Positions 22,345 through 43,565 of a DNA stretch of 64,000 nt are shown in pieces. A program made the position numbers and the translations under genes. The DNA lies in assembly GCA_036269895.1 (NCBI GenBank), contig DATBDN010000004.1:4759-68758 (forward strand), in the 5' to 3' direction. How positions within the stretch are numbered: position 1 is the first letter of the stretch; every line of letters starts with the position of its first letter. The DNA comes from Thermoleophilaceae bacterium. Its GTDB lineage: Bacteria; Actinomycetota; Thermoleophilia; Solirubrobacterales; Thermoleophilaceae. The notes beneath the pieces were generated by a model, which was not told the DNA's origin, made no database searches, and saw nothing but the letters and a program-made list of their open reading frames with translations.

Positions 22345-22379
22345 CCAGCCGTCCTGGCCTTCGCCGATGATGGACGGGC

Positions 22380-23036
22380 TTGCCGTACCAGGCCCTCCCC
22401 CTTGCACTTGCCGCGGCCTTCTTCCCCTTCGGCCTGATCGTGTTCACGCTGCTCGTCTCGAGCGAGCCGTTCCGGGCGCGCGCCGTGAGCTTCCTCGCCG
22501 GCGCGTTGGCCATGACGTTCGGCTGCGGCGTCGTCGGCGTGACGCTCGCGCACGACCTCGACCTGGCCGGCGTGCGCGGCTCGCATCACGTCAGCGGCGT
22601 CGTGGACATCGCGGTCGGCGCATTGCTGCTGATCGCCTTCGTCGTCATCCGCCGGCGACCTGCGAAGGAGCGCGCCGCCCGCGAGCCCGCGCCGTGGATC
22701 CGCGCGCTCATGCGCTCGCCGCTGCTCGCATTCTTGCTCGGTGCGGGGCTCTACGCCCCGTCGCCGCTTTATCTCGGAGCGTTGACGATCGTCGCCGACG
22801 CCGGCCTGTCGACAGCGGGCGACGTCGTGTGGGTCGCAATCCTGACTGTCATCGTCACCTCGCTGATCGAGGTGCCCGTGATCCTGATGCTGCGCGAGCC
22901 CGAACGCGGGCGCGCCGGGCTCGTGCGGCTCAACGGCTGGATGAGCAGCAACGGCAGAGCGCTGTTGATGTGGCTCGTCCTAGCGGCAGGCGTCTACCTG
23001 GTGGTACGCGGGGTGGCCCGCGTCAGTGCTCTGTGA
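22380..23036 (+). CDS. GAP-family (Sap-like) integral membrane protein
   Basis: 218 aa with about 6 TM and a central basic loop (RRRPAKERAAREP). It has the same architecture as 45982..46665. Confidence 0.55.
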   Translation: MPYQALPLALAAAFFPFGLIVFTLLVSSEPFRARAVSFLAGALAMTFGCGVVGVTLAHDLDLAGVRGSHHVSGVVDIAVGALLLIAFVVIRRRPAKERAAREPAPWIRALMRSPLLAFLLGAGLYAPSPLYLGALTIVADAGLSTAGDVVWVAILTVIVTSLIEVPVILMLREPERGRAGLVRLNGWMSSNGRALLMWLVLAAGVYLVVRGVARVSAL

Positions 23037-25653: not shown

Positions 25654-25744
25654 CGGCGCTCCCTTCCGTGTGCATCGTCCCTCCTGCCCTGGGGCCGTAC
25701 ACCACTGACAGAGTCAGCATAGTGACGTCGTGTTAAGTAGGAAG

Positions 25745-26101
25745 CTACCCCAAGCGGCAGTCACGCCACAATCCCTGCAACGCGCTTGGCGTCAACTCCG
25801 CTTTCGCCGTGTGGGCTGCGGCCCCAGCCGCCTCCCGAGCCGGCTCTGAGACCGGCACTCCGTCGGACAAGAGGATCACAACCGTGCGCGGCCTGACCGC
25901 GACGAGTCGCTGACAAGTCTCGTACCCGTCGAGGCCGGGCATGTCGACATCTACGATCGCCAGATCGGGCTCCAACTCGATCACGGCCTCGATCGCCTCC
26001 TCTCCCGACGCGACCTCGCCGACCGACGTGAAGCCCGGCGCCGCGACAACCACCGCCCGTGCCGCCCGCCGGGCAGCCTCGTCGTCATCGACGGTGAGCA
26101 C
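25745..26101 (-). CDS. Stand-alone response-regulator receiver domain
   Basis: TVDDD acidic pocket, DLAIVDVDMPGLDG phospho-acceptor Asp, VVILLSD, conserved Lys (AKAEL). No output domain. Confidence 0.8.
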   Translation of the reverse strand: MLTVDDDEAARRAARAVVVAAPGFTSVGEVASGEEAIEAVIELEPDLAIVDVDMPGLDGYETCQRLVAVRPRTVVILLSDGVPVSEPAREAAGAAAHTAKAELTPSALQGLWRDCRLG

Positions 26102-26134
26102 CGTGATCTGCGTCGCCGCGCTGATGAGCCGAGA

Positions 26135-26353
26135 CTAGCCGCCGCCGGGCTCGTCGAGGCGGCGTACCTCGATCAACTCGAGCCCGAGCGAGCGGATCCG
26201 CTCGAGCACGCCGTGCAGCTCGGCCTGGTCACGCAGGTCGCCGCGCACGATCGTCTCGGCGGGCTTCACCGACGTCGTGAAGTCCTGGAAGGCGTCGGTG
26301 ACGGAGTCGCTCAGCCTGCCTTTGATCCGGAACTCGTAGCTGGAATCCGGCAC
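26135..26353 (-). CDS. Small conserved actinobacterial protein (~72 aa) of unknown function
   Basis: YEFRIKGRLSDSVTDAFQDF..PAETIVRGDLRDQAELHGVLERIRSLGLELIEVRRL matches a family I recognise by pattern only. The start is moved to GTG 26353, because the longer ORF would be translated across the operator array. Confidence 0.5.
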   Translation of the reverse strand: MPDSSYEFRIKGRLSDSVTDAFQDFTTSVKPAETIVRGDLRDQAELHGVLERIRSLGLELIEVRRLDEPGGG

Positions 26354-26388
26354 GCCAGCAACATCCCCGCGAAGGGGGTGATCTTGCG

Positions 26389-26405
26389 TCACCCCCACCG
26401 GGTGA
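26389..26405. promoter_or_regulatory. Palindromic site P1: TCACCC-CCACC-GGGTGA
   Basis: Perfect 6+5+6 inverted repeat in the divergent region between 26353(-) and 26502(+). It is preceded by GGGGGTGA (26374-26381). Confidence 0.7.
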
Positions 26406-26426
26406 GAGAGCAATGCCAACAGCGGC

Positions 26427-26443
26427 TCACCCACGGTGGGTGA
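26427..26443. promoter_or_regulatory. Palindromic site P2: TCACCC-ACGGT-GGGTGA
   Basis: Perfect inverted repeat. It is followed 24 bp later by the half-conserved site TCACCC-GCGCG-CCCCAG (26451-26467). Confidence 0.7.
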
Positions 26444-26501
26444 AGCCTGCTCACCCGCGCGCCCCAGAGGATCGCCGGACAGGCAACGAAGGAGGACGCG
26501 A

Positions 26502-26996
26502 ATGAGCAATCTCGTGGCGATCGCCTACGAGGACGAGGCAACTGCGCAGGAAGTGATGTCGGGACTGGCGCGGTTGCAGACCGAACATGCGATCGAGCTC
26601 GAGGATGCGGTGCTCGCGACACGCGACTCAGACGGAAAGGTCAAGCTCCATCAGCCGAGCACGGCCGGCGCCGGAGCGGCGGGCGGTGCGCTGTGGGGCG
26701 GCCTGATCGGCCTGCTCTTCCTCGCACCACTGCTCGGAATGGCGATCGGGGCGGCGACCGGCGCAGCCGCGGGAGCGCTTACCGACGTCGGCGTCGACGA
26801 CAACTTCCTGAAGGAGCTCGGCGGCAAGCTGGGTGAGGGCAACGCCGCGGTGATCGTCCTCGTGCGGAAGGCGACGCCCGACAAGGTGCTCGCCGAGATC
26901 GGCCACTATGGGGGCCACGTCCTTCAGACCTCGCTCAGCAACGAGCGCGAGGCGGAGCTGCAGGCCGCGCTCGACCGGCGCGGGGCGGCCGCCTGA
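26502..26996 (+). CDS. DUF1269-family membrane protein
   Basis: MSNLVAIAYEDEATAQEVMSGLARLQ..IELEDAVLATRDSDGKVKL., a Gly-rich TM segment, then VGVDDNFLKELG..L..G.AA.IVLV. The start is moved to ATG 26502 with a GAAGGAGGA ribosome-binding site. Confidence 0.8.
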   Translation: MSNLVAIAYEDEATAQEVMSGLARLQTEHAIELEDAVLATRDSDGKVKLHQPSTAGAGAAGGALWGGLIGLLFLAPLLGMAIGAATGAAAGALTDVGVDDNFLKELGGKLGEGNAAVIVLVRKATPDKVLAEIGHYGGHVLQTSLSNEREAELQAALDRRGAAA

Positions 26997-27007
26997 GGCC
27001 TCATGGG

Positions 27008-28081
27008 ATGCGCCGCCTGCCGGGAATACTCGTCGTACTCGCGAGCTTCGTCTTGTTCTTCGCAGCGCTCTCGGTGTGGGTCGCGCGCCAGGCGCTCGAC
27101 ACGAGCGACTGGGTCACCACCTCGAACGCGCTGGTACGCGATCCCCACATCCAGCAGGAGACGGCCAGCTACGTAGCCGACCAGCTCGTCGACCAGGCGG
27201 CAATCACGGACCGCATCCGGCAGGTCCTGCCGCCGCGCGCCGACAAGCTCGCTCCGACGATCGCCGGCGCGGTTCCCGAGCTGGCGGAGCGCGCGACGCT
27301 GCGCGCGCTGCGCTCGGGCGCGTTCCAGAAGCTCTGGGAGAACACGAATCGCCTCGCCCACAGGCAGCTGGTCAGGGCGGTCACCGGAGATACCAGCCGC
27401 ACGGTCGTGTTCGACCTGCGGCCGATGCTCGGCCAGGTCGCCACGCGCATCGGCCTGGGGCCGGACGTCGTCAACAAGCTCCCCCCGGACCGCGGCAAGA
27501 TCACGATCGTGCGGCCCAACCAGCTGGTGACCGCGCGTAAGATCGCGCACGCCCTGAGGACGCTGGCGATCGTTCTCGTCCTGCTTGCGCTGGTGTTGAT
27601 GGTGGCGGCCGTGTGGAGCTCGCACGATCGTCGCCGGACGCTCATGCAGACGGGGCTCGGCATCCTCTTCGCGGGACTGCTCGTGCTGGTGCTCAGGCGG
27701 GTCCTCGGCCACGTGATCGTGGATGACCTCACATCGGGCGGGGCATCCGAGCCAGCGGCCCAGTCGACCTGGGACATCGGCACGTCGTTGCTGCGCCAGA
27801 TCGCGGCCAGCGTCGTCGCGCTGGGGATCGTGGTGATGTTCTGCGCGTGGCTCGCGGGGCCGGCCCGGTGGGCGACCCGCGCTCGCGGCTGGATCAGCCC
27901 ATCGCTGCGGGAGCAGCCCGCGATCGCGTACACGATCGCCCTGGTGTTCCTCGTCCTGCTGCTCGCACTCGGCGTGATCCCGGGCAGCAGCCGGCCGGTG
28001 CTCGTGCTGATCTACGTCGTCTTGGTGGTCGCGGGCGTCGCGGCGCTGCGGCGTCAGGTGCAGGCCGAGGCCGGCCCCTGA
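27008..28081 (+). CDS. Integral membrane protein of unknown function
   Basis: 357 aa with an N-terminal TM, a soluble middle part and 4-5 C-terminal TMs. It starts 11 nt after the DUF1269 gene. Confidence 0.65.
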   Translation: MRRLPGILVVLASFVLFFAALSVWVARQALDTSDWVTTSNALVRDPHIQQETASYVADQLVDQAAITDRIRQVLPPRADKLAPTIAGAVPELAERATLRALRSGAFQKLWENTNRLAHRQLVRAVTGDTSRTVVFDLRPMLGQVATRIGLGPDVVNKLPPDRGKITIVRPNQLVTARKIAHALRTLAIVLVLLALVLMVAAVWSSHDRRRTLMQTGLGILFAGLLVLVLRRVLGHVIVDDLTSGGASEPAAQSTWDIGTSLLRQIAASVVALGIVVMFCAWLAGPARWATRARGWISPSLREQPAIAYTIALVFLVLLLALGVIPGSSRPVLVLIYVVLVVAGVAALRRQVQAEAGP

Positions 28082-28090
28082 CGAGATGCC

Positions 28091-28495
28091 TCAGCCGTCG
28101 TAGCCCTCTTCGAAGCCACGCCAGAACTCGTTTGCCGCCGAATCGTGGCTATGGCGGAAGGCGTCCGCCTGCGCACGGACCTCCTGGGCTGAGTCCTTGA
28201 CCTGCGTCAAGTTGCCCTGCTTGAGCCCCTGAGCCGCCTGCTGCAGCGTGTCGCCCTGCGTTGCGACCTGCGTACGGACCGTCTTGCGCACGTCGTCACT
28301 GATGCCGTTCACCGTGTTGCGGAGCTCCTTCACCGCGTTCCGCGCATCGTCGACCGAGCGCGAGTCGAACACCGCCCGCGTCGCCTGGCCGACCTTCTTG
28401 CCGTCGTTGTGCGCCTTGTCCTCGGGCGAGTCGCCACAGGCGCCGAGCACGACGACTGCGGCGAGAGCAGCCGCGACCAAGCGAGCGCGCCTCAT
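28091..28495 (-). CDS. Lipoprotein (helical, Gln/Ala-rich)
   Basis: MRRARLVAAALAAVVVLGAC has a lipobox. Its ATG overlaps the stop of the HdeD-like gene (ATGA). Confidence 0.7.
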   Translation of the reverse strand: MRRARLVAAALAAVVVLGACGDSPEDKAHNDGKKVGQATRAVFDSRSVDDARNAVKELRNTVNGISDDVRKTVRTQVATQGDTLQQAAQGLKQGNLTQVKDSAQEVRAQADAFRHSHDSAANEFWRGFEEGYDG

Positions 28496-29064
28496 GCAAT
28501 CCCCGCCTTGTGCAGGTCGCGCAGCTGCCAGCCGGCCACCGCCTCGAGCGTGCCCTGAAGGATCAGGCCGATCGCCGAGATCAGCACGAGCGTGGCGAGG
28601 CCGATTGTCGGCTCCGCGAGGATGATCGTGCCCGCCGCGATCCCGAGGATCCCGAGGCCGATGTTCCAGGCACGCCCGTACGGGATGACGATCCCGCGAG
28701 TCAGCTGTACCACGCCGCTCACGACCCACCAGAAGCCGATCACCCATGCGATCGCGAGCACCGAGTCGGCGGGACGAACAACCAGGAAGAGGCCGGCCAG
28801 CACCGTTATCAAGCCCAGCAGCACGAGCGCGATCCGCAGCCCGACGCTCATCGCGTCCGAGCCGCCGATACCACGCACGAGCGTCGCGACTCCAACGACA
28901 AGCAGGTACGCGCCGATGATCACCCCCACCACCAGCAGGCTCGGACCCGGCCAGACGAGGATGATGATCCCGATCAGGATCGTCAATAAGCCTGCCATGA
29001 ACGGGATCCACCAGTACTGCCCTGGATTGGCCGGCTGAAGAGCGGTGGGGTCCACCATTGCCAT
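28492..29064 (-). CDS. HdeD-family (DUF308) membrane protein
   Basis: Six TM helices with the repeated G..L...G pattern (WWIPFMAGLLTILIGIIILVWPG.SLLVVGVIIGAYLLVVG). Confidence 0.8.
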   Translation of the reverse strand: MAMVDPTALQPANPGQYWWIPFMAGLLTILIGIIILVWPGPSLLVVGVIIGAYLLVVGVATLVRGIGGSDAMSVGLRIALVLLGLITVLAGLFLVVRPADSVLAIAWVIGFWWVVSGVVQLTRGIVIPYGRAWNIGLGILGIAAGTIILAEPTIGLATLVLISAIGLILQGTLEAVAGWQLRDLHKAGIA

Positions 29065-29100
29065 ACGCAGAATGGTCCGTCCGCGTGGAGGCAGCGGGCA

Positions 29101-29117
29101 TCACCCGCGGTGGGTGA
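29101..29117. promoter_or_regulatory. Palindromic site P3: TCACCC-GCGGT-GGGTGA
   Basis: Perfect inverted repeat. Its centre is 45 nt upstream of the HdeD-like start (29064, minus strand). Confidence 0.7.
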
Positions 29118-29176
29118 TCAGACCGCGTGGCGGGCGCTGCACGGCTGTGGCTCCTCGGTCCCCCTAGGGCGGCTTC

Positions 29177-29401
29177 TCAATGCGACAGGAGCTTGCGCTT
29201 GGCGGCGCCGAACTCCTGCGGCGTGAGCGAGCCTGCGTCGAGCATCGCCTTCAGCTGCGTGAGCTGCGCGGCCATGTCGGGTGGTTGGGTAGGCGGCTGG
29301 GCGTGGCGCGCGCGGACGCGGCGCCGGGCATACCAGGTGCCGCCGATCACAGCCGCTCCCAGGAACGGGCGCCGCCCGAACACTGGCGGACGTAAAAGCA
29401 T
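29177..29401 (-). CDS. SHOCT-domain small membrane protein
   Basis: C-terminal QLTQLKAMLDAGSLTPQEFGAAKRKLL matches the SHOCT pattern. There is one N-terminal TM. The start is moved to ATG 29401. Confidence 0.6.
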   Translation of the reverse strand: MLLRPPVFGRRPFLGAAVIGGTWYARRRVRARHAQPPTQPPDMAAQLTQLKAMLDAGSLTPQEFGAAKRKLLSH

Positions 29402-29436
29402 GCGCAGAGCGTCCTGAAGACGGGGGTGACGGCGGA

Positions 29437-29453
29437 TCACCCCCGCTGGGTGA
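29437..29453. promoter_or_regulatory. Palindromic site P4: TCACCC-CCGCT-GGGTGA
   Basis: Perfect inverted repeat in the divergent region between 29401(-) and 29480(+). It is preceded by GGGGGTGA (29422-29429). Confidence 0.7.
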
Positions 29454-29479
29454 GCCTCGCGCAGATACCGTCCCCGCCG

Positions 29480-30565
29480 ATGGCACAGGGCGTGCGCCTA
29501 GGCGACAGGGTCGAGCAGGCGATCGAAGAGCATGCGGACGCCGAGCTCGAGATCGCACGCGGCGAGCACGAAGCGCAGCGGACGCACCCCCGCAGCCTGC
29601 GGCGCACGATCATCTGGCTCGCTATCACGGGCATCTCCCTCTACCTGGTGGCCCCCAGCGTCCTGGACACACTCGCGTCGTGGCGCGACATCAAGAGGTT
29701 CGCCCCACAGTGGCTGCTCGTGATGCTGGTCGCTCAGACGGCCGCCATGGCGTGCCTGTGGGCGCTCCAACACATCGCGATCGGCGTCGCCAGGTGGTCT
29801 GCCGTGATCACGTCCCAACTGGCGGGGAACGCGATGGCCAAGGTCGCCCCCGGCGGCGGCGCGGTCGGCTCGGCGCTGCAATACCGGATGCTCGTCACGG
29901 CCGAGGTGCCACCGCGGCCGGCGGTCTCGGGCCTCACCGCAGCCAACGTCCTCACCTTCGCCGTCGTCCTTGCGCTGCCCGTGCTCGCGATCCCGGCTCT
30001 CATCCGCGGCTCCGTCGACCGCACCCTGACGGAGACGGGGATCGCGGGGCTCGTCGTCTTCGTCGTCCTCGCCGCGCTCGGTGTCGTCGTCCTCGCGCTC
30101 GACGGGCCATTGCGGTGGATCGGCCGAACGGCGCAGCGAATCCGCAACCGCGTGCGGCGCAACTGCGAGCCGTTGCAGACGCTGCCCGACCGCCTCATCC
30201 GCGAGCGCGACCGGCTCCTGAACACGCTCGGTCCGCGCTGGAAGCGGGCGCTGCTGGCCACCGTCGGCCGCTGGGCCTTCGACTACGCAACGCTGCTGGC
30301 CGCGCTCGCCGCTGTCGGCGTGCATGCGCGCCCCGCGCTCGTGTTGCTCGCGTTCTGCGCCGCTCAGCTGCTCGCGCAGATTCCTATCACCCCGGGCGGA
30401 CTCGGATTCGTCGAGGCCGGGCTGACGGCGATGCTCTCACTCGCCGGCGTCGGCCCGGGCAACGCCGTGCTGGCGACATTCGCGTACCGGCTGTTCTCGT
30501 ACTGGCTGCCGATGCCGGTGGGGCTTGGCGCCTGGGTCTGGCACCGCCGCCGCTACGGCGCCTGA
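29480..30565 (+). CDS. Lysylphosphatidylglycerol-synthase-TM-region (UPF0104, flippase-like) membrane protein
   Basis: Multi-TM protein with the C-terminal motif QIPITPGGLGFVEAGLTAML. The start is moved to ATG 29480. Confidence 0.75.
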   Translation: MAQGVRLGDRVEQAIEEHADAELEIARGEHEAQRTHPRSLRRTIIWLAITGISLYLVAPSVLDTLASWRDIKRFAPQWLLVMLVAQTAAMACLWALQHIAIGVARWSAVITSQLAGNAMAKVAPGGGAVGSALQYRMLVTAEVPPRPAVSGLTAANVLTFAVVLALPVLAIPALIRGSVDRTLTETGIAGLVVFVVLAALGVVVLALDGPLRWIGRTAQRIRNRVRRNCEPLQTLPDRLIRERDRLLNTLGPRWKRALLATVGRWAFDYATLLAALAAVGVHARPALVLLAFCAAQLLAQIPITPGGLGFVEAGLTAMLSLAGVGPGNAVLATFAYRLFSYWLPMPVGLGAWVWHRRRYGA

Positions 30566-30586
30566 CCGCCGATGGACAGCGGGGAA

Positions 30587-30603
30587 TCACCCGTTCCGGG
30601 TGA
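30587..30603. promoter_or_regulatory. Palindromic site P5: TCACCC-GTTCC-GGGTGA
   Basis: Perfect inverted repeat, 22 nt after the upstream stop. Its centre is 45 nt before ATG 30640. The degenerate site TCACTC-CGGCT-GGGCAT follows at 30611-30627. Confidence 0.7.
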
Positions 30604-30639
30604 GCGCCGGTCACTCCGGCTGGGCATACCGTCGAACGC

Positions 30640-32646
30640 ATGATCCTGAGGCGCCTGCCCGCGATGCTGGCCATCTGGGTCTCGGCAGCGCTCGCGGTCC
30701 TGCTCTGCAGCTGGATCTTCTCGAGCGTCAACGTGACCACCTTCGGAGCGGCGCTGGTCGCCGCGCTCGCGATTGGCCTGGCCAACGCGCTCCTCTGGCC
30801 GCTGCTGATCCGCCTGACGCTTCCGCTCACGGTGCTCACGCTTGGACTCGGCGCGCTGGTCCTGAACGGCGCGATCGTGCTGCTCGTCGCCGCCATAACC
30901 CCAGGTCTGACTGTCAAGGGCCTCGGCGGCGGGATCGTGTTGGCGCTGGCCATGACCGCCGTCACGACGTTCGCCTCGTCGATCTTCTTCATCGACGACG
31001 ACGCACGCGTGGCGCGTCATCTGGTCCGCCGCGCGGCGGAGCGGCGCGACGAGGTGATCAAGACCGACGTGCCCGGCGTTCTGTTCCTCGAGATCGACGG
31101 GCTCGCGCACGAAGTGCTGCGCCGCGCGATGCGCGACGGCAACGCGCCCGAGCTGGCGCGCTGGGTGCGGGACGGATCTCACCATCTGATCGGCTGGGAG
31201 ACTGACTGGTCGTCGCAGACAGGTGCATGTCAAGCCGGTTTGCTCCACGGCAACAACGACGACATGCCTGCCTTCCGCTGGTGGGAGAAGGACCGCGACG
31301 CCCCGATCGTCACGAACCACCCGCGCGACGCTGCCGAGCTCGAACGCCGGGTGTCGAACGGCCGCGGGCTGCTGCACGCCGACGGCGCCAGCAGGGCCAA
31401 CATCCTGTCCGGCGACGCGGTGTATTCGCTGCTCACGATGAGCCGCGTGCTCGACGCACGCGTACGTGGCTACGGTCGCGACTACTTCACGTACTTCGCG
31501 AGCCCCTTCAACACGGCGCGCACGCTGCTGTTGTCGATAGTGGACATCGCCGCCGAGCTGCGCGCTGCCGCGGTGCAGCGACGGCGCGACGTGCGCCCGC
31601 GAATCGAACGCGACTGGAAGTACGCGCTCGTGCGCGCGTGGGGCACGACCGTGCAGCGTGATCTGCAGGTCGAGTCGGTGCTCGGAGACGTGTACACCGG
31701 CCGGCCGGTCGTCTACTCGACGTTCCTTGCCTACGACGAGGTGGCGCATCATTCCGGCCTGGAGCGTGCGGACACGCTGGGGGTGCTGCGGCACGTCGAT
31801 CAGGCGATCGGGCGCATCGCGCGCGCGGCACGCAACGCTCCGCGTCCTTACGAGATCGTCGTGCTCTCGGATCACGGCCAGACCCAGGGCGAGACCTTCC
31901 TGCAGCGCTACGGCGAGACGCTCGAGCAGCTCGTCCAGGCCGCGTGCGCGACCGAGGACGTGCGGGCGGACAGCTCCGGCGAGGACGAGGCGATGGGCCG
32001 GCTCTCGGCGGCGCTCACGGAGGCGGGCGGCACCGGCAACACGGCGGGCCGCGCGGTTGCCCGCGTCACCCGCGGGCGCCAAGTCGACGGCGAGGTGAGG
32101 CTCGAGAAGAGCGACCGCAAGGAAGGCGACGAGATCCCCGAGATCAGCGTGATGGCCTCGGGCTGCCTTGGGCTGATCACGTTCCCGCGGATGCCTGGCC
32201 GCGCGACCTACGCTCAGATCACCGAGCGATACCCGAGCCTGATCGACACGCTCCGCAACCACCCCGGCATCGGCTTCGTGATGGTCGACGGCGTGGTCTA
32301 CGGCGCCCACGGCACGCGCAATGTCCGCGCCGGCGACGAGGCCGAGGGCCAGGACCCGCTCGCGCCGTACGGGCCCAACACCGCGCAACACGTGGGGCGC
32401 ACCGATGGGTTCCCTCACTGCCCGGACATCGTGGTCAACAGCACGTGGTGGGCAGAGACCGAGGAAGTTGCCGCGTTCGAGGAATTGGTCGGCTCGCACG
32501 GCGGCCTCGGCGGACCGCAGTCGTACCCATTCGTGCTGGGCCCGGCAAAGCTGCCGCAGCCTGAGGGTGCGGTGGTCGGCGCCGAGTCGATGCACCGCGT
32601 CCTGCGGGGGTGGCTCGCGCACCTCGGGCAGGACGCCTACCGATGA
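30640..32646 (+). CDS. Fusion protein: N-terminal 4-TM holin-family-4-like domain plus alkaline-phosphatase/nucleotide-pyrophosphatase superfamily domain
   Basis: N-terminal ~120 aa form 4 TM helices (LANALLWPLLIRLTLPL..). The rest has metal-site motifs LFLEIDGL, YDEVAHHSG, VVLSDHGQ and GSHGGLGG. Confidence 0.8.
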   Translation: MILRRLPAMLAIWVSAALAVLLCSWIFSSVNVTTFGAALVAALAIGLANALLWPLLIRLTLPLTVLTLGLGALVLNGAIVLLVAAITPGLTVKGLGGGIVLALAMTAVTTFASSIFFIDDDARVARHLVRRAAERRDEVIKTDVPGVLFLEIDGLAHEVLRRAMRDGNAPELARWVRDGSHHLIGWETDWSSQTGACQAGLLHGNNDDMPAFRWWEKDRDAPIVTNHPRDAAELERRVSNGRGLLHADGASRANILSGDAVYSLLTMSRVLDARVRGYGRDYFTYFASPFNTARTLLLSIVDIAAELRAAAVQRRRDVRPRIERDWKYALVRAWGTTVQRDLQVESVLGDVYTGRPVVYSTFLAYDEVAHHSGLERADTLGVLRHVDQAIGRIARAARNAPRPYEIVVLSDHGQTQGETFLQRYGETLEQLVQAACATEDVRADSSGEDEAMGRLSAALTEAGGTGNTAGRAVARVTRGRQVDGEVRLEKSDRKEGDEIPEISVMASGCLGLITFPRMPGRATYAQITERYPSLIDTLRNHPGIGFVMVDGVVYGAHGTRNVRAGDEAEGQDPLAPYGPNTAQHVGRTDGFPHCPDIVVNSTWWAETEEVAAFEELVGSHGGLGGPQSYPFVLGPAKLPQPEGAVVGAESMHRVLRGWLAHLGQDAYR

Positions 32647-33389
32647 AGCTGACCTGGCTCGGCCACGCCACCGTCGTGATCGACACCGCCGGCGGCCGGC
32701 TGGTGACCGACCCGCTCCTGCGCTCGCGCGTCGCACACCTCCGCCGGCACGCCGCGCCGGTCAGGGCCCCGGAGAAGGTCGACGTGGTGCTCTTGTCGCA
32801 CCTTCACTACGACCACCTCGACGTGCCGTCGCTGCGCAAGCTGAAAGCGCCCGTTGTCGCGCCGCCGGGCAGCGAGCGGACGCTGCAGCGGCTGCACTTG
32901 GAGGTCTCCGAGCTGGCGGCGGGCGAGCAGATCGCAGTCGGCGGCGCCGAGGTCACCGCCGTCCGCGCGGTGCACGACGGCCGCCGCTCGCCGTTGGCGG
33001 GGCGCCGCGACGACGACTCGATCGGGTACCTCGTCGAGGGCGACGACCAACGCGTCTACTTCGCCGGCGACACCGAGGTCTTCGCCGGCATGCAGGATTT
33101 CGGGCCGCTGGACGCCGCGCTCGTCCCGATCTGGGGCTGGGGGCCGCGGCTGGGGCCCGGCCACATGGACCCGAGCCAGGCCGCCGAAGCGCTGACGCTG
33201 CTGCGGCCGGCGGTCGCCGTGCCGATCCATTGGGGCACGTTCCTGCCGATAGGGGGCTACCGCCGCCACCACGACCTGCTGCATACGCCGGTCGAGCAGT
33301 TCCGCCTGCGCGCCGCCGAGCTGGCGCCCGACGTCCGCATCGAGGTCCTGGACCCCGGCGGTTCCCTCGTCATCACCCAGCGTGGGTGA
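32643..33389 (+). CDS. MBL-fold metallo-hydrolase
   Basis: MKLTWLGHATVVI..; VLLSHLHYDHLD (HxHxDH). ATGA overlap with the upstream gene. Confidence 0.85.
   Translation: MKLTWLGHATVVIDTAGGRLVTDPLLRSRVAHLRRHAAPVRAPEKVDVVLLSHLHYDHLDVPSLRKLKAPVVAPPGSERTLQRLHLEVSELAAGEQIAVGGAEVTAVRAVHDGRRSPLAGRRDDDSIGYLVEGDDQRVYFAGDTEVFAGMQDFGPLDAALVPIWGWGPRLGPGHMDPSQAAEALTLLRPAVAVPIHWGTFLPIGGYRRHHDLLHTPVEQFRLRAAELAPDVRIEVLDPGGSLVITQRG
33373..33389. promoter_or_regulatory. Palindromic site P6: TCACCC-AGCGT-GGGTGA (occupies the last 17 nt of the MBL gene, stop codon included)
   Basis: Perfect inverted repeat. The half-conserved site TCACCC-GTCGA-GCGCCC follows at 33397-33413. Confidence 0.7.
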
Positions 33390-33445
33390 TGGCCCGTCAC
33401 CCGTCGAGCGCCCAGGATTGAACAACGACCGAAAGGAGTTCGTGG

Positions 33446-33859
33446 ATGTCGACGCAGTACGACATACCCCCGCAGGAGGAGCCGTCAGCTTGGGCCAGCG
33501 GCGGCTTGGTGTTCGCCGGGACACTGCTGGTACTCGGTGGGATCTTCCAGGCGATCGACGGGATCGTCGCGATCGCCAACGACGACTTCTTCGTCAAGAC
33601 CCAGCACTACACGTTCAACCTGGACGTGACGGCGTGGGGATGGATCCACCTGATCCTCGGCATCCTGATGTTCGCTATCGGGCTCGGCCTATTCAGCCAG
33701 GCCGCCTGGGCCGGCGTCGGCGCGATCGCGATCGCGATGTTGAGCGCGATCGCGAACTTCTTCTTCATCCCCCACTACCCGATCTGGTCGCTGGTCATCA
33801 TCGGGCTCGACATCTGGGTGATCTGGGCCCTGACGCGCCCAGGCGTTATTCGCACCTAG
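33446..33859 (+). CDS. 137-aa four-TM membrane protein (paralog A)
   Basis: MSTQYDIPPQEEPSAWASGGLVFAG..FFVKTQHYTFNLDVTAWGWIHLILG..IANFFFIPHYPIWSLVIIGLDIWVIWAL. It is clearly homologous over its full length to 35216..35629. Confidence 0.75.
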   Translation: MSTQYDIPPQEEPSAWASGGLVFAGTLLVLGGIFQAIDGIVAIANDDFFVKTQHYTFNLDVTAWGWIHLILGILMFAIGLGLFSQAAWAGVGAIAIAMLSAIANFFFIPHYPIWSLVIIGLDIWVIWALTRPGVIRT

Positions 33860-35119
33860 GCCGACGAGCCAGGCGGTCACGGCCGCCAGAATCGCGATCG
33901 GCGCGGTCTCTGCGGCAACGCTGCCTGCGAGCAGCGTCGCCAGCACCGCCCCGAAAAACGGCAGGCCGGAGACTGCCGCTGATCCCGCTGCGATGCCGGC
34001 GACGGCCGCCGGGGTGAGCGCAAAGCCGGGCAGGACGTGCGAGCCAAGCACGCCGGCCGCACAGCCGAGCGAGATCGCCGGGAAGATCGGGCCCCCGCGA
34101 AAGCCGCTGGCCAGCGACAGCAGGTAGCCCGCGCCCTTGAACGCGAGAACGGCGAGCAGGACACCGGCGGAGCCCTCGGCGATGTAGTCCCCCGAAGCGG
34201 CTTGGCCGGAGAAGAGCACGAAGTCCACCGGGCGGTCGGTAAGCCCGCGGAACACGGCCGCCAGGCTGCCGATCGCGAGGCCCGCGACCACGAGACGCGA
34301 GAGCACGGGCGCCGACCAGCGAGCAGCGACCGCCGCGGCTGCCGGGCGGAAACTTGCGATTGCCACGGCGACGATCGCCGCGACCGGCAGCGACCACAGG
34401 ATGTCGACGACGTGAACAGTCGGATAGTCGGGCAGCCCTGGCAGGCCGAGCGACTGCTCGTGAACCCCAGGCCAGCCGGCCACACCGGTGAAGACGAGTG
34501 AGCCGACGCCGGCGGCCACGAACCCTGGGAGCAGCGCCCGCCCGACGACTGCCGCGGGCACCCTGCCGGAAGCGGAGACCGCCTCGAAGAAGAAAAGCAG
34601 GACCGGCAGCGGCCCTCCGAACAGCCCGGCCATCGCCGCGAACGCCCCTGCCAGCGCAAGCGGCATCGCCTGCGGCCCTGTCGCGCGCAGGGCGCGCGCC
34701 GCGACTACCCCGACCGTCAGCCCCAGCGCCAGGAGCGGCGCCTCGGGGCCAAGCACGATGCCGCCTGCCAGGGCGATCAGGGTGACAGCAAGCACCGAAA
34801 CGACGTTGATCGGCGGGGCTTGCTCCATCGACAAGCCCTGTAGCGGTGAATGGCCGCCGTGGCCGGGCAGTCGCAACGCGAGCGCCACGATGACGCCGGC
34901 GAGCGCGGGCACCAGCACGACATACCACCACGACGGCTCCTGCCAGCCGAACCAATCCGGCACGTCGTTCCAGACCAGCGTTGTGGCGCCGTGGAGCACC
35001 GACTCGAAGATCGCGGCTGCCGCCGCCGCGGGCACGCCGATGAGCGCGCCGGCCACGAGACCGCCCACGAGCGTGCGAGTCCCGTCACTCGTGTTCACGG
35101 CCACCGGCCCGACGTTCAC
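33689..35119 (-). CDS. ClC-family voltage-gated chloride channel / H+-Cl- antiporter
   Basis: GHGGHSPL(QG), GGIVLGPEAPL and GFRGGPIFP selectivity-filter-like motifs, 10+ TM. The last ~55 codons are antisense to 33446..33859. Confidence 0.85.
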   Translation of the reverse strand: MNVGPVAVNTSDGTRTLVGGLVAGALIGVPAAAAAAIFESVLHGATTLVWNDVPDWFGWQEPSWWYVVLVPALAGVIVALALRLPGHGGHSPLQGLSMEQAPPINVVSVLAVTLIALAGGIVLGPEAPLLALGLTVGVVAARALRATGPQAMPLALAGAFAAMAGLFGGPLPVLLFFFEAVSASGRVPAAVVGRALLPGFVAAGVGSLVFTGVAGWPGVHEQSLGLPGLPDYPTVHVVDILWSLPVAAIVAVAIASFRPAAAAVAARWSAPVLSRLVVAGLAIGSLAAVFRGLTDRPVDFVLFSGQAASGDYIAEGSAGVLLAVLAFKGAGYLLSLASGFRGGPIFPAISLGCAAGVLGSHVLPGFALTPAAVAGIAAGSAAVSGLPFFGAVLATLLAGSVAAETAPIAILAAVTAWLVGLGANNAWARQGPDHPDVEPDDDQRPDRVVGDEEEVRDRAQHRDRDRADAGPGGLAE

Positions 35120-35140
35120 GGCCGCCAGGGTGACGACGCG

Positions 35141-35157
35141 TCACCCTCGCCGGGTGA
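35141..35157. promoter_or_regulatory. Palindromic site P7: TCACCC-TCGCC-GGGTGA
   Basis: Perfect inverted repeat flanked by TCACGG-N6-GGGTGA (35116-35133) and TCACCC-GCGGT-GGCCCG (35165-35181). Confidence 0.7.
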
Positions 35158-35215
35158 GGCCCGATCACCCGCGGTGGCCCGACTATGGGCTCAAATCCGA
35201 GTGAGGAGCGGCTCG

Positions 35216-35629
35216 ATGAGTACTCAATACGACCCGCCGCGGACTGACCAGCCCTCAGGCTGGGCGACCGGCGGTCTGATGTTCGCGGCATGCGCGCTGA
35301 CGCTGGTCGGGATCTTCCAGTTTCTCACCGGGCTCGTCGCGATCATCAACGACAACTTCTTCGTCGTCTCGCACAACTACACGTTCAACCTCGACACGAC
35401 CGCATGGGGCTGGATCCATCTGCTGATCGGCGTCGCGGTGTTCCTCGTCGGTCTCGGCCTGTTCACCGGCAGGGAGTGGGCGGCTGTCGGCGGCATCGCC
35501 CTCGCGATGCTGAGCGCAATCGCCAACTTCTTCTTCATCCCCTACTACCCCATCTGGTCGCTGCTCATCATCGGGCTCGACGTCTGGGTCATCTGGGCGC
35601 TGTCGCGGGCGGGCGTGCTACGCAGCTGA
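35216..35629 (+). CDS. 137-aa four-TM membrane protein (paralog B)
   Basis: MSTQYDPPRTDQPSGWATGGLMFAA..FFVVSHNYTFNLDTTAWGWIHLLIG..IANFFFIPYYPIWSLLIIGLDVWVIWAL. GAGGAG ribosome-binding site. Confidence 0.75.
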   Translation: MSTQYDPPRTDQPSGWATGGLMFAACALTLVGIFQFLTGLVAIINDNFFVVSHNYTFNLDTTAWGWIHLLIGVAVFLVGLGLFTGREWAAVGGIALAMLSAIANFFFIPYYPIWSLLIIGLDVWVIWALSRAGVLRS

Positions 35630-36718
35630 TCTCTCGCCGGCGCCGCTCAGGTCGTGCGATATGTGCACGATCGCCGAGGTGACCGGCGCCGCCAGCACCA
35701 GGCCGGCCATCCCGAACAGCGCGCCGCCCGCGAGCGTCACAACGAGCACGGCCAGCGGGTGTATGTCAAGCGCAGCGCCATACGCAAACGGCTGTACTAG
35801 CTGCTGAAGCACGCCGTTGCCAAGCAACGCGATCACGGCCATCGCGAGGGCACCGTCGGCACCCTGTGCTCCGAGGGCCAGCAGCACCGCGAACACCCCC
35901 GCCGTCCATGCGCCTAGGTACGGCACGTAGGCGCCGAGGAAGGTGACAATCGCGATCGCTCCTGCAAGGGGCACGCCGATGATCAACGCGCCGAGCCCGA
36001 TCACGACCGCGTTGAAGGCGGCCACAACGGTGACACCGCGGAAGTAGCCGCGCAGCGCGCGCAGCATCTCGCTGACGACCGTGTGCGCGATCGGCCGCGG
36101 CACGCCCGCGTGACGCTCGACCCAGTCGCGCAGCGACGGGCCGTCTTTGAGCAGGAAGAACAGCGCCAAAGCGGTGAACGCGGCGAACGCGGCCAGCGAC
36201 GCCAGCGCCGACAAGCCGCTTGCCACACCGTGGAGCAGCGCCGCGCCCGCCGACGAGACCGACGACTTGGCCTCGGCCTCTCCGTTGTCCGCGGCCGACT
36301 GGTCCACGCCCACGTCCTTCACGGCCGTCCCGACCTTGTCGACCGCCGCAGAGAGACCGTTGCTGATCCGGTCCGACTGCCCCGTGATCCCGCCGATCAC
36401 GACGACCGCGACGACGGCGCCGAGCGCGACGATCGCCAGGAGCACCGACGCGCTACCGAGCGCGCGCGGCACACGGTGGTGCGCGAGCCACCCGATCACC
36501 GGGGCCGCCACCGCAGCGATGATCGTCGCAGTCAGCAGTGGCAAGACGATGACGCTCGTGAGGGCGAGCAGCCAAACCGCGCCCACGACGATCAGGACGA
36601 TGCCGACCAGCAGCCACGCGACCCCGCCGGCATCTCGCAGCCATTTCGGGGCTGCGAACACGCCCGTCAGTTCGCCTGCGTCGACAGCGCCGGTGTCAGC
36701 AGCCGCGTCCTCCACCAC
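35618..36718 (-). CDS. AI-2E family (PerM-like) transporter
   Basis: 8 TM with the characteristic FLGAYVPYLGAW and LLGNGVLQQLVQP segments. Confidence 0.85.
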   Translation of the reverse strand: MVEDAAADTGAVDAGELTGVFAAPKWLRDAGGVAWLLVGIVLIVVGAVWLLALTSVIVLPLLTATIIAAVAAPVIGWLAHHRVPRALGSASVLLAIVALGAVVAVVVIGGITGQSDRISNGLSAAVDKVGTAVKDVGVDQSAADNGEAEAKSSVSSAGAALLHGVASGLSALASLAAFAAFTALALFFLLKDGPSLRDWVERHAGVPRPIAHTVVSEMLRALRGYFRGVTVVAAFNAVVIGLGALIIGVPLAGAIAIVTFLGAYVPYLGAWTAGVFAVLLALGAQGADGALAMAVIALLGNGVLQQLVQPFAYGAALDIHPLAVLVVTLAGGALFGMAGLVLAAPVTSAIVHISHDLSGAGERSAA

Positions 36719-36751
36719 CCAGATCCTGCGAGCGCAGCGGGTGAGCCAGCA

Positions 36752-36768
36752 TCACCCCGCGCGGGTGA
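36752..36768. promoter_or_regulatory. Palindromic site P8: TCACCC-CGCGC-GGGTGA
   Basis: Perfect inverted repeat in the divergent region between 36718(-) and zwf. It is preceded by GGGTGA at 36739-36744. Confidence 0.7.
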
Positions 36769-36792
36769 GGCCCAGGTCGAGGCCGACCCAAG

Positions 36793-36809
36793 TCACCCGT
36801 GATGGGTGA
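36793..36809. promoter_or_regulatory. Palindromic site P9: TCACCC-GTGAT-GGGTGA
   Basis: Perfect inverted repeat. Its centre is 43-46 nt upstream of the zwf start (GTG 36844 / ATG 36847). Confidence 0.7.
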
Positions 36810-36846
36810 TTGACGGCGCAATGACCACCTGAAATGAATCGCGGTG

Positions 36847-38286
36847 ATGGCAACCACAACGGCCCCGCGCGCGGCTGACGCCCAGGTCACGCGCGATTCT
36901 GGCCCACTTCAAGCCGACGTGTTCGTCGCATTCGGCATCACGGGCGACCTGGCAAAGGTCATGACGCTTCGCTCGCTCTACCGCCTCGAGCGGCGCGGCC
37001 TCCTCGAGTGCCCGATCGTCGGCGTCGCCGTCGACGATTGGACCGTCGACGACCTGCGCGAACGGGCGCGCAGCGCGATCGTCGACGGCGGCGACGAACT
37101 CGACGAAGCCGTCTTCAAGCGGTTCGCGGACCGACTCTCATACGTCAGCGGCGATTTCGGCGATCCGGAGACGTTCGAACGGCTCAAGAAACACCTGGGC
37201 GAGGTGCAATCGCCGGTCTTCTACCTCGAAATCCCGCCGTTCCTCTTCGGTCGCGTCGTGAAGGGCCTGCATGACGCCGGCATGACGAAGAATGCGCGCG
37301 TCGTCGTCGAAAAGCCGTTCGGCCACGACCTCGGGTCCGCCCACGAGCTCGCGGACGAGCTGCACCAGTACATCGACGAGTCGCAGCTGTTCAGGATCGA
37401 CCACTTCCTCGGAAAGATGGGACTGGTCGAGATCCTCTACCTCCGGTACGCGAACGCGATGTTCGAACCGGTCTGGAACCGCAACTACATCGGCTCCGTC
37501 CAGATCACGATGGCGGAGTCCTTCGGCGTGGCCGACCGTGGGCATTTCTATGACCCGGTTGGCGCCCTGCGCGACGTGGTGGTCAACCACCTGATGCAGG
37601 TGGTCGCGGCCACCGCAATGGAGCCGCCGGGCGCGCGCGACGCACGGGCACTGAAGGACGCGATCTACTCGCTGTTCTCCTCGATCCCGGCGGCAGACCC
37701 GCACCATTACGTGCGCGGCCAGCACGACGGCTACCTCGACATCGACGGCGTCGCTCCCAACTCGACCACCGAGACCTACGCGGCGCTGCGCATCGACATC
37801 GACAACTGGCGCTGGTCGGGCGTCCCGTTCTTCATCCGCACCGGGAAGCTGATGCCGGCGACCCAGACCGAGGTGCGCGTCGTGTTCCGCGAGCCGCCAC
37901 GGCTTGGCTTCCACCACGGCAATCGGCGGCCGGAGCCGAACCAGCTAGTCGTCAGGCTCGACCCGACGACCGGGATCCGCCTGCAGGTCGACGCGAAGCG
38001 CCACGACGCCGCCGACGCGGGCGAGATCGCGCTGGACATGGAGTTCGCGCTCGAGGGCGGCGAGGGCGCGGCTCCGTACGAGGTCCTGCTGCTCGCCGCG
38101 ATGCGCGGCGACGCGACGCGCTTCACCCGCCAGGACGGAATCGAGCAGGCGTGGCGGATCATGGCTCCGCTGCTCGAATCGCCGCCGCCGGTGCATCCGT
38201 ACGCGCCCAGCACATGGGGGCCGAAGGAGGCTGACGAAGTCGTCGCGGGCTTCGGCCGCTGGCACGAGCCCTGGATCGTCCAATGA
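36847..38286 (+). CDS. zwf: Glucose-6-phosphate 1-dehydrogenase
   Basis: FGITGDLAK dinucleotide motif, EKPFGHD, RIDHFLGK active-site signature. The start could be GTG 36844. Confidence 0.9.
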   Translation: MATTTAPRAADAQVTRDSGPLQADVFVAFGITGDLAKVMTLRSLYRLERRGLLECPIVGVAVDDWTVDDLRERARSAIVDGGDELDEAVFKRFADRLSYVSGDFGDPETFERLKKHLGEVQSPVFYLEIPPFLFGRVVKGLHDAGMTKNARVVVEKPFGHDLGSAHELADELHQYIDESQLFRIDHFLGKMGLVEILYLRYANAMFEPVWNRNYIGSVQITMAESFGVADRGHFYDPVGALRDVVVNHLMQVVAATAMEPPGARDARALKDAIYSLFSSIPAADPHHYVRGQHDGYLDIDGVAPNSTTETYAALRIDIDNWRWSGVPFFIRTGKLMPATQTEVRVVFREPPRLGFHHGNRRPEPNQLVVRLDPTTGIRLQVDAKRHDAADAGEIALDMEFALEGGEGAAPYEVLLLAAMRGDATRFTRQDGIEQAWRIMAPLLESPPPVHPYAPSTWGPKEADEVVAGFGRWHEPWIVQ

Positions 38287-43133: not shown

Positions 43134-43557
43134 CGTCATCGCCGGCGCCGCGGGAACCGCGGCCATGACCGCCGCATACAACCTCGAGCGCCGCTGGCGC
43201 CACGCGCGCGGCCCCTTGGACTACGACGACTCGCTCGTACCCGGCGAGATCGTCGCGGGGATCATGCACCTCCCGCATGTGACGGCCAAGGAGGACTACG
43301 AGCTCGGCATGGCGCTGCGCTGGGGCTATGGCTCGGTGTTCGGCATCTGGCACGGCATCCTGCGCCGCCGCGTCGGCGAACCACGCGCCAGCCTGGGTTT
43401 CTTCGCCACGCTGATGACGGCAACCCTGTCGCTGTTCCCGATCCTCGGGCGCACGCCGCCGCCGTGGCGATGGCGGAAGGACGTCATGGCGACGGCCGTC
43501 GGTACGCACGTTGCCTACGTGACCGGGCTCGCAGCCGTCGACGACCTGCTCGCCTGA
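43108..43557 (+). CDS. Hypothetical membrane protein
   Basis: 149-aa track ORF (TTG start) with 3-4 hydrophobic segments. It fills the gap between ndh and cydA in the same orientation. Confidence 0.45.
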   Translation: MKFPWPIRSVIAGAAGTAAMTAAYNLERRWRHARGPLDYDDSLVPGEIVAGIMHLPHVTAKEDYELGMALRWGYGSVFGIWHGILRRRVGEPRASLGFFATLMTATLSLFPILGRTPPPWRWRKDVMATAVGTHVAYVTGLAAVDDLLA

Positions 43558-43565
43558 GGCCCGCC

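Follow-up and report, generated by a model that had tools for sequence, protein, structure and literature searches.

MalT-dependent promoters contain several boxes, have no -35 element, and depend on the activator; MalT boxes are asymmetric, are arranged as direct repeats, and have the proximal box near -37.5. The pho boxes of PhoB, the SARP/AfsR repeats, and the lambda cII site TTGC-N6-TTGC also place repeated half-sites a short set distance before the -10 element of promoters with no usable -35, and the cII half-sites flank the -35 position. As for LuxR-type activators of class II, their usual position is -44. In Streptomyces, the Group I box of the developmental regulator BldM is TCACcCgnncGgGTGA, with an N4 spacer, and BldM homodimers footprint on TCACCC-N4-GGGTGA and activate Group I promoters (Al-Bassam et al. 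2014, PMC4125116). Here we analyse a 64-kb stretch of DNA from a Thermoleophilaceae bacterium (assembly GCA_036269895.1, contig DATBDN010000004.1, positions 4,759 to 68,758; hereafter the window), in which palindromes with the same hexamer arms and an N5 spacer precede the transcription units of a compact block of stress, membrane, and respiration genes containing the gene of a LAL (LuxR/MalT-family) regulator.

The palindrome TCACCCNNNNNGGGTGA, i.e., TCACCC-N5-GGGTGA, has exactly nine perfect 17-mer matches in the window, starting at 26389, 26427, 29101, 29437, 30587, 33373, 35141, 36752, and 36793. Dinucleotide-preserving shuffles of the window, which has a G+C content of ~70% throughout, give a mean of 0.01 matches. 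The window holds no copy with one mismatch, and allowing up to two mismatches adds only three matches (1087, 8272, and 54096), each with two mismatches, versus 2.97 expected, i.e., the chance level. Searching all 64 kb for degenerate modules likewise gave nothing above chance outside 26.3-36.9 kb. Flanks and spacers of the nine copies are mutually unrelated. An earlier sequence-only reading of this DNA had listed these coordinates and spacer sequences, which the pattern search reproduces, had put the chance level at about 0.01 in 64 kb, a value matched by the shuffles, and had seen no perfect copy outside 26.3-36.9 kb, which agrees with our counts and extends to one-mismatch copies. It had also placed every copy in front of a transcription unit, and going through the palindromes one by one leads to the same result. 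Its treatment of the 17-mer as the whole operator, however, does not hold. The functional unit is a promoter module of ~46 bp with three half-sites, which has a defined anatomy, keeps a fixed register with a -10 hexamer and a start codon, is conserved in other genomes, and is linked to LAL genes.

The anatomy of the module follows from a list of all TCACCC and GGGTGA hexamers of the window and a comparison of their mutual spacings. Only two spacings recur, TCACCC-N5-GGGTGA (nine times) and GGGTGA-N7-TCACCC (seven times), and every occurrence of the latter abuts one of the nine palindromes. In each case the third half-site faces the served gene; palindrome 35141 has one on both sides, giving four half-sites in total, and the third half-site of palindrome 30587 is TCACTC, with one mismatch. 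The resulting consensus is TCACCC-N5-GGGTGA-N7-TCACCC-N11-A-N3-T. Altogether, the window contains nine oriented canonical modules and one variant, and about eleven promoters would be served by the nine palindromes.

A scan of GTDB (one genome per species) for the exact three-half-site unit yielded at least 120 stretches, for which taxon counts are lower bounds. Register statistics are based on 166 distinct units listed in these stretches, which were fetched by the three-half-site pattern only, with the start of the unit taken as position 1. The units come from Thermoleophilia, Micromonosporaceae, Acidimicrobiia, Chloroflexota, and Dormibacterota, and the geometry is kept throughout: position 42 is A in 146 of 166 (88%) and position 46 is T in 145 of 166 (87%), with no conservation at the neighbouring positions. 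Thus, a -10 hexamer of the form nANNNT is located exactly 11 nt past the third half-site. The first in-frame start codon of the codon-biased downstream open reading frame (ORF) shows a sharp peak 22-25 nt past the unit (45 of the 151 listed), about 6 nt beyond the hexamer, which implies leaderless mRNAs. Transcripts of the module are therefore predicted to be leaderless or to have very short leaders, with a transcription start site (TSS) no more than ~25 nt from the start codon. Among 195 perfect palindromes of the listed loci and the window, 154 carry the A42/T46 signature in one or both orientations (both in 24); imperfect third half-sites in the same set are mostly one mismatch away from the consensus, e.g., CCACCC, TCATCC, and TCACCT.

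If position 53 is taken as the TSS, the half-sites fall at about -52..-47, -41..-36, and -28..-23, with the 17-bp palindrome centred at ~-44 and the third half-site at -25.5. The second and third half-sites straddle the -35 position, which is occupied by the 7-bp spacer. This spacer is weakly patterned (G at spacer position 2 in 120 of the 166 units listed), its positions carry little information, and none of the -35 type of element is seen in these units. The -10 hexamer is weak as well, being nANNNT without the usual T at -12, and a sigma-70 consensus scan of 26000-37200 found no promoter with both -35 and -10 elements. Two other readings of these signals were rejected. A Shine-Dalgarno reading of 'AGGAT' is ruled out because only the A and the T are conserved (cACAAT, gACAGT, cACGCT). 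As for an alternative sigma promoter, in which GGGTGA would resemble the SigB/SigF -10 element, the distances to the nANNNT hexamer (23 bp from the palindrome and 10-11 bp from the third half-site) fit neither a -35 nor a -10 element.

Regarding the protein that may read these sites, the LAL product of the window has the architecture of its family, i.e., a STAND/AAA NTPase (AAA_16, E=8e-9), a TPR-like sensor (TPR_MalT, E=3.5e-13), and a C-terminal LuxR-type helix-turn-helix (HTH; GerE, E=3.1e-15), all according to Pfam, and its gene is linked to and preceded by the candidate sites. The N-terminal 413 residues match the MalT structure PDB 8bob (E=1.9e-51). To quantify the linkage, all codon-biased ORFs of at least 120 8-kb loci were clustered without prior labels. 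LAL regulators are the most frequent family by the motif (37 of the 120 loci listed, 46 copies), ahead of every target family, and motif-adjacent LAL genes occur in Thermoleophilia, Dactylosporangium, Planosporangium, a Streptomyces, Chloroflexota, and Dormibacterota; for comparison, S. coelicolor has 14 LAL genes genome-wide (PMC3282765). Modules head either the LAL gene directly or an operon in which it follows small78, a gene for a small conserved protein. The HTH of the motif-linked LAL proteins is near-invariant across phyla (...EIAxELFVSVNTVKTHxKxIYRKL). The second-ranked family by the motif, comprising OmpR-type regulators and kinases, was rejected as a rival binder since its members come from orthologous Micromonospora loci.

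The reverse test gives a consistent result. Metagenome loci were selected for LAL homology alone, and these 80 loci (689 kb) contain 38 perfect palindromes, 29 one-mismatch palindromes, and 85 module matches of at least 15/20 with A42/T46 (the last in 42 loci), compared with 0, 1.3, and 1.7 in shuffles, respectively. A scan of the LAL-selected loci for operator variants finds 50 modules versus 2 in shuffles, and these variants go together with substitutions in the recognition helix. Helix NTVKTHxK is found with TCACCC-N5-GGGTGA, NTVKTH[LM]RH with TCACCC-N4-G(G/T)GTGA, NTVRTH with TCACGC/GCGTGA or TCACAC/GTGTGA, NTVNTH with TCACCG/CGGTGA and the third half-site TCACCT, NTVGTH with TCACCA/AGGTGA, and S-T-[VI]-K-T-H with degenerate arms and the third half-site TCATCC. 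The register of the second half-site, the third half-site, and the -10 hexamer is kept across all these variants, and the first half-site alone shifts in the N4 class. The N4 class is represented by LAL loci L141, L151, L156, L177, L193, and L136, which have N7, a TCACCC third half-site, and the -10 hexamer GAGGCT. The TCACGC, TCACCG, TCACAC, TCACCA, and TCATCC classes are seen at L133, L158, L164, L170, L157, L163, L196, L147, L150, L143, and L148, with R, N, G, or S substitutions in the LAL helices. A rule by which THxK would determine N5 and THxR would determine N4 was dropped, as it holds in the metagenome set and fails in the genome set. The covariation of helix and operator strongly supports, without proving, the LAL protein as the binder. 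Together with linkage and the reverse test, it makes the adjacent LAL regulator, which the sequence-only reading had named for binding tests, the best candidate.

Of the known systems, that of the BldM box is the closest. The sequence that we take to be BldM is 100% identical to Streptomyces NarL/FixJ regulators in the database, has D54 as in BldM, and carries the helix DTVKTHARRLF, so that there is a known case of TCACCC being read by a GerE-type HTH with TVKTH. The two systems share identical inverted hexamer half-sites, a LuxR/GerE-type HTH, and the TVKTH of the recognition helix, and the exact N4 16-mer is found at some of the LAL loci. The palindromes of the window, however, have N5 in nine of nine cases and N4 in none, so that the 16-bp BldM palindrome is absent among them, and the module adds a third half-site and a set register with the -10 hexamer. 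The linked regulator here is an 876-aa STAND/TPR protein, whereas BldM is an orphan response regulator of 203 aa; the targets here are stress, membrane, and respiration genes, whereas those of BldM are developmental, and the host belongs to Thermoleophilia and not to Streptomyces. The BldM study is the only literature found on both half-sites with LuxR or LAL regulation (PMC4125116). No published LAL operator matching the module was found in the literature searched, and the published sites of the LAL regulator SCO6993 are unrelated to it (PMC9628970). The sequence-only reading had proposed a candidate undescribed regulon; the literature searched gives no precedent for the N5 and third-half-site arrangement, but the half-site pair is known from the BldM box.

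MalT resembles the LAL regulator of the window in its AAA_16/NOD, MalT-type TPR, and GerE HTH architecture. The MalT-box core GGA[TG]GA, in the form quoted in the SCO6993 study (PMC9628970), differs from GGGTGA by one base, and the third-half-site variant TCATCC is its exact reverse complement. In contrast to MalT, the module combines an inverted pair with a third site, at -25.5, and has no asymmetric direct repeats of GGA[TG]GA, and a conserved 72-aa small78 gene accompanies the regulator. The likeness to PhoB, SARP, and cII promoters is an analogy only, as the folds are unrelated (winged helix in PhoB and SARP, a different HTH tetramer in cII) and the repeats direct, and no homology is implied. 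DosR, DevR, and OsdR share with the present system a LuxR-type HTH, a G/C-rich palindrome, a clustered stress and respiration regulon, and autoregulation; OsdR binds AGGGCCGATCGGCCCT and is autoregulated (PMC5069765). They are, however, two-component response regulators and not LALs, and no USP or nitroreductase genes are present here. Their site, of the GGGNC-N-GNCCC type (AGGGCCGATCGGCCCT or TTSGGGACTWWAGTCCCSAA), differs from TCACCC-N5-GGGTGA and was rejected as a match, which agrees with the earlier statement that the palindrome is no DosR operator. The resemblance to CsoR/RicR operators suggested at that time finds no support: 0 of 30 scanned window proteins match a CsoR-family Pfam entry, the family does not recur by the motif, and the targets are not metal-homeostasis genes. 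The accompanying remark that the window lacks such a gene is misleading in that the likely regulator sits inside the block, headed by a module.

Conservation of the targets was assessed in the motif-selected loci listed, for homologues with 30-67% amino-acid identity and a palindrome at most 300 nt upstream. An upstream site is found for homologues of small78 in 20 of 24 loci, DUF1269 in 9 of 10, the 357-aa membrane protein in 8 of 9, DUF7144 in 13 of 18, DUF308 in 4 of 7, and LPG_synthase_TM in 3 of 5. The window derives from a soil metagenome; its closest genomic relatives are metagenome-assembled genomes (MAGs) of Thermoleophilia, and DUF1269 is 67% identical to proteins of Thermoleophilaceae and Solirubrobacteraceae. 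Clustering of the genes downstream of units puts small78 first (at least 18 units), with DUF308 at 6 units or more. Locus L207, which was fetched via a small78 homologue instead of the motif, has three perfect modules, preceding small78 and holin-phosphodiesterase, DUF1269/LapA, and DUF7144 genes, and a LAL gene 8 kb away. At L199, the site is found with a GMC oxidoreductase gene (65% identical) and with a cydA-like gene; apart from this cydA-like gene, zwf/cyd genes were not seen as module targets in the sampled loci. In Micromonosporaceae the module precedes BON, SCP2, DUF2267, and FGE-sulfatase genes, and sulfatase, bPH_2, and SfLAP genes are also targets in other genomes. The module-regulator pair thus recurs in several soil phyla, and no description of it was found in the literature searched. 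The proposal that the palindromes mark a co-regulated gene block gains support from these data, as homologues of the same genes carry the site in distant genomes.

Micromonospora modules of the N5 type with leaderless geometry are found before BON (L017, L026, L082), SCP2 (L008, L032), and DUF2267 (L041, L053, L075) genes, adjoining OmpR-type two-component genes, with no LAL gene within 4 kb. In Solirubrobacterales MAGs, modules and a LAL gene are clustered over contiguous 16-24 kb, similarly to the block of the window (sets L018+L031+L052, L016+L103+L115, L072+L104, and L071+L079). Such clustering suggests a conserved regulon island.

Based on the lack of both a -35 element and T at -12, the invariant register of the three half-sites, and the linkage to a MalT-like STAND regulator, we consider it rather probable that the palindromes are the upstream two half-sites of an activator-dependent promoter module driven by the LAL protein. 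The LAL regulator (23023-25653) would be the protein bound at the modules. A signal together with ATP would cause it to oligomerise, so that its LuxR-type HTH domains fill the half-sites, with a head-to-head pair on the palindrome at -44 and a further protomer at -25.5. The -35 position would thereby be bracketed and RNA polymerase holoenzyme recruited, as class II, PhoB, SARP, or lambda cII activators do. The small78/receiver/LAL operon would be under positive feedback, and the output would comprise envelope and stress functions (DUF1269, DUF308/HdeD, SHOCT, both DUF7144 paralogues, the AI-2E transporter, the ClC channel, and the holin-like phosphodiesterase with the MBL hydrolase) and respiration (the zwf/GH15/GMC/NDH-2/cydAB operon). 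The family names suggest a regulon for envelope and stationary-phase stress and for respiratory and carbohydrate-reserve remodelling.

Several observations count against activation by the LAL protein. Support for the LAL-DNA pairing is wholly correlative; the covariation counts are small and come from phylogenetically related loci, and the spacing does not always follow the K or R after 'TH' (exceptions are L051, L118, L098, and L121). A recognisable module is present in only ~30-50% of LAL-homologue loci within the sequence examined, and for many of the modules in Micromonospora no LAL gene is present within 4 kb. Two promoters of the block, those of zwf and LPG_synthase_TM, depart from the module, and a protomer centred at -25.5, inside the spacer between -35 and -10, would be unusual for an activator. 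Finally, LAL regulators can repress, as is reported for SCO6993, which binds its own promoter (PMC9628970).

The last point leads to a model of opposite sign, in which the same LAL protein binds the same sites at -52..-23 and represses by occluding the -35 position and the spacer, induction being relief. Such a footprint would indeed span the -35 position and part of the spacer, and at LPG_synthase_TM the palindrome overlies the -35 region in a different register; SCO6993 provides the precedent. A repressor, however, needs no exact 11-nt distance between its operator and the -10 hexamer, yet this distance is kept in ~87% of the 166 listed units across phyla. Promoters with neither a -35 element nor T at -12 would be expected to be weak when unoccupied, and the nearest characterised relatives, MalT for the protein and BldM for the site, are activators. 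We therefore regard repression as unlikely, though worth keeping in mind. The binder might also be another LuxR/NarL protein with a TVKTH helix, a BldM-like one encoded elsewhere in the genome, the LAL gene being merely a member of the regulon. BldM, a NarL/FixJ regulator, recognises the same half-sites, the LAL gene lies downstream of modules and is hence a target in any case, the Micromonospora modules often stand without a nearby LAL gene, and the window itself encodes a NarL-type regulator (55040-55666). But operator variants that track substitutions in the LAL recognition helix are not expected for a mere target gene, and no further regulator family recurs by the motif across phyla among the loci listed. 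The NarL protein of the window, the only one of its type there, has the different helix NTVKEHTSG and no module near it, which makes it an unlikely reader of the palindromes; its gene overlaps a co-directional GAF-domain gene (55656-56810) by a few bases. BldM-type sites use N4, which none of the window sites does. Such a LuxR/NarL binder thus seems distinctly improbable.

Explanations without a regulatory protein fare worse. GGGUGA can pair with either UCACCC, so that two alternative stems of 6 bp are conceivable within the three half-sites, giving a DNA cruciform or, in RNA, a hairpin switch or attenuator; variants such as TCACGC/GCGTGA and TCACCG/CGGTGA keep the arms complementary. However, the element precedes both the -10 hexamer and the leaderless starts and hence stays outside the transcript of its own promoter. 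Its arms do not vary in sequence though pairing alone would suffice, single mismatches in the third half-site are uncompensated, the stems have just 6 bp and no T-tract, and the operator variants correlate with the protein helix. No Rfam family covers the palindromes: in 25500-37500 the sole match is a sub-threshold, unrelated P10 small RNA at 37016-37087 (22.8 versus a cutoff of 37 bits), which overlaps no palindrome, and a terminator scan found nothing over the palindromes either. A purely structural role is thus very unlikely, and the earlier view that the arms are read as sequence by a DNA-binding protein stands, with a multimeric protein in place of a dimeric one. As for a palindrome of the repetitive extragenic (REP) or miniature transposable (MITE) kind, spread through intergenic DNA with no regulatory role, it would fit the fact that the copies of the window are perfect with no degenerate intermediates. 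Their flanks and spacers are nevertheless unrelated, they are confined to one functional block of the window, and they are conserved before homologous genes in different phyla. The copies are also oriented and stand at a set distance from -10 hexamers and start codons, and these orientation and distance statistics effectively refute a REP element, leaving it hardly credible.

The promoters of the block can be described individually. The small78/receiver/LAL operon is served on the minus strand by palindrome 26389..26405 (half-sites 1 and 2, by pattern match), a third half-site at 26376..26381 (TCACCC on the minus strand), and the -10 hexamer GATGTT at 26360..26365, with GTG 26353 at module position 53, predicted to be leaderless. 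The operon consists of small78 (26135..26353), encoding a 72-aa conserved hypothetical protein that is the most frequent module target, a receiver-only response-regulator gene (25745..26101, Pfam Response_reg, E=1.7e-16), and the 876-aa LAL/MalT-like regulator gene (23023..25653; AAA_16, TPR_MalT, and GerE HTH), the candidate cognate transcription factor. The receiver gene between small78 and LAL is not conserved at other loci. Genes for SatP/YaaH-family and SfLAP (GAP-family) membrane proteins (21595-23036) adjoin the LAL gene and have no module. On the plus strand, the three-half-site unit at 26427..26456 and the -10 hexamer GAGGAT at 26467..26472 serve the genes of DUF1269 (26502-26996) and the 357-aa membrane protein downstream of it (27008-28081). 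With a predicted TSS at ~26479, the DUF1269 start ATG 26502 would have a 23-nt leader with the Shine-Dalgarno sequence GGAGGA.

The DUF308/HdeD and lipoprotein module (29072..29117, minus strand) comprises palindrome 29101-29117, a degenerate third half-site TGCCTC at 29088-29093, and the -10 hexamer GACCAT at 29072-29077; ATG 29064 is predicted to be leaderless. It precedes the DUF308 gene (28492-29064) and a downstream lipoprotein-like gene, which together span 28091..29064 on the minus strand. The SHOCT module (29408..29453, minus strand) has palindrome 29437-29453, a third half-site at 29424-29429, the -10 hexamer GACGCT at 29408-29413, and a predicted leaderless ATG at 29401. For the LPG_synthase_TM gene on the other side of this palindrome (29466..30565, plus strand), a leaderless start at ATG 29480 is probable, preceded by a -10-like TACCGT at 29466-29471. 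Palindrome 29437 overlies the -35 region of this gene, which is a non-canonical geometry; the homologue in L052 shows the canonical arrangement. The next module (30587..30632, plus strand), with the third half-site TCACTC at 30611-30616, the -10 hexamer TACCGT at 30627-30632, and ATG 30640, serves a Phage_holin_4_2 and Phosphodiest fusion gene and an MBL-fold hydrolase gene (30640..33389, plus strand, Pfam).

The module of DUF7144 paralogue a (33373..33418, plus strand) has a third half-site at 33397-33402 and the -10 hexamer CAGGAT at 33413-33418; the TSS is predicted at ~33425 and the start is ATG 33446, with a leader of ~21 nt. Its palindrome (33373-33389) overlaps the end of the MBL hydrolase gene, including its last codons and TGA stop, so this promoter lies partly in coding sequence. 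The bidirectional module at 35112..35186, with four half-sites within 35128-35170, faces both ways. Its leftward promoter has the -10 hexamer GAACGT at 35112-35117 and GTG 35104 of the Voltage_CLC channel gene (33689..35104, minus strand), a member of the regulon, and its rightward promoter has GACTAT at 35181-35186 and ATG 35216 of DUF7144 paralogue b (35216..35629, plus strand). The ClC ORF overlaps the 3' end of DUF7144a on the opposite strand by ~170 nt (33689-33859), and a perfect inverted repeat with an 11-bp stem, TCGCGATCGCGA...TCGCGATCGCGA, with a T-rich tail is located inside this overlap at 33726-33755.

The AI-2E transporter module (36723..36768, minus strand) consists of palindrome 36752-36768, a third half-site at 36739-36744, and the -10 hexamer CAGGAT at 36723-36728, followed by GTG 36715/36718; the AI-2E family transporter gene occupies 35618..36718 (minus strand). 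The variant promoter of the zwf operon (36793..36847, plus strand) has palindrome 36793-36809 followed by the -35-like TTGACG at 36810-36815 in place of the spacer and third half-site, ATGAAT at 36834-36839, and a start at GTG 36844 or ATG 36847. No nANNNT hexamer is present at the canonical position of this promoter, for which reason the assignment has lower confidence. The genes behind it, zwf, GH15, GMC oxidoreductase, NDH-2, a small ORF, cydA, and cydB (36844..45985, plus strand), are co-directional, with overlapping or abutting ends. Among the transcription units, the sequence-only reading had overlooked the ClC channel gene, served by the leftward side of 35141; LPG_synthase_TM is off the canonical geometry, and at zwf neither a third half-site nor the canonical -10 hexamer is present.

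Longest-ORF calls at 26135-26509, 33689-35119, 35618-36718, and 29426-30565 are probably too long, and the module geometry puts the predicted leaderless starts at 26353, 35104, 36715/36718, and 29480, respectively. Over-long calls are also seen in some public annotations, e.g., a ClC of 476 aa and one small78 homologue of 124 aa. Outside the block, the window encodes a 1462-aa protein (2325-6713) with Laminin_G_3 and repeated Ig-like (SCAB-Ig/AIR9-type) domains, which is unrelated to the palindromes.

As for small78 itself, it has more than 1200 homologues, all annotated as hypothetical and most of them 69-73 aa long, which fits the start at GTG 26353. The AlphaFold2 model shows a beta-alpha-beta-alpha-beta arrangement (pLDDT 78). 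The protein has no Pfam match and no PDB sequence match, and a Foldseek search with the model found no significant structural match (best E=0.057). Small78 is a conserved partner that accompanies the LAL regulator.

A broader proposal joins all these elements, and as a whole we put it forward only tentatively. It describes a large cross-phylum MalT-like STAND subfamily with an unrecognised promoter grammar, a simple helix-to-base code, and small78 as partner. An inverted HTH pair at -44 and a third protomer in the spacer between -35 and -10 would place two protomers astride the -35 position, where they might substitute for -35 recognition by sigma region 4 at leaderless promoters. The variable residue of NTV[K/R/N/G]TH would read the inner bases 4-6 of the half-site, with N4 or N5 spacing as a second dimension, and small78 might be a dedicated co-sensor or anti-activator. 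If this were true, paralogous LAL regulons of a single genome would remain orthogonal to one another by virtue of the code.

Soil Actinomycetota are rich in LAL regulators, which have been called poorly studied and have defined operators in almost no case, and the lineages involved here (Thermoleophilia, Chloroflexota, and Dormibacterota) are mostly uncultured. Judging from sequence, the block appears to belong to a LuxR/MalT-family regulon with a promoter architecture that is conserved across phyla and for which the literature searched holds no description. The module provides a precise model of operator and promoter together with a candidate helix-to-base code, and with it come a conserved partner protein and a conserved regulon of stress, envelope, and respiration genes. 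Regarding annotation, it fixes gene starts; for several genes of the block, which are probably leaderless, the longest ORF probably overstates the length. Possible uses include the prediction of regulons from metagenomes, the matching of LAL paralogues to their targets, and an orthogonal, inducible, leaderless expression part for high-GC hosts.

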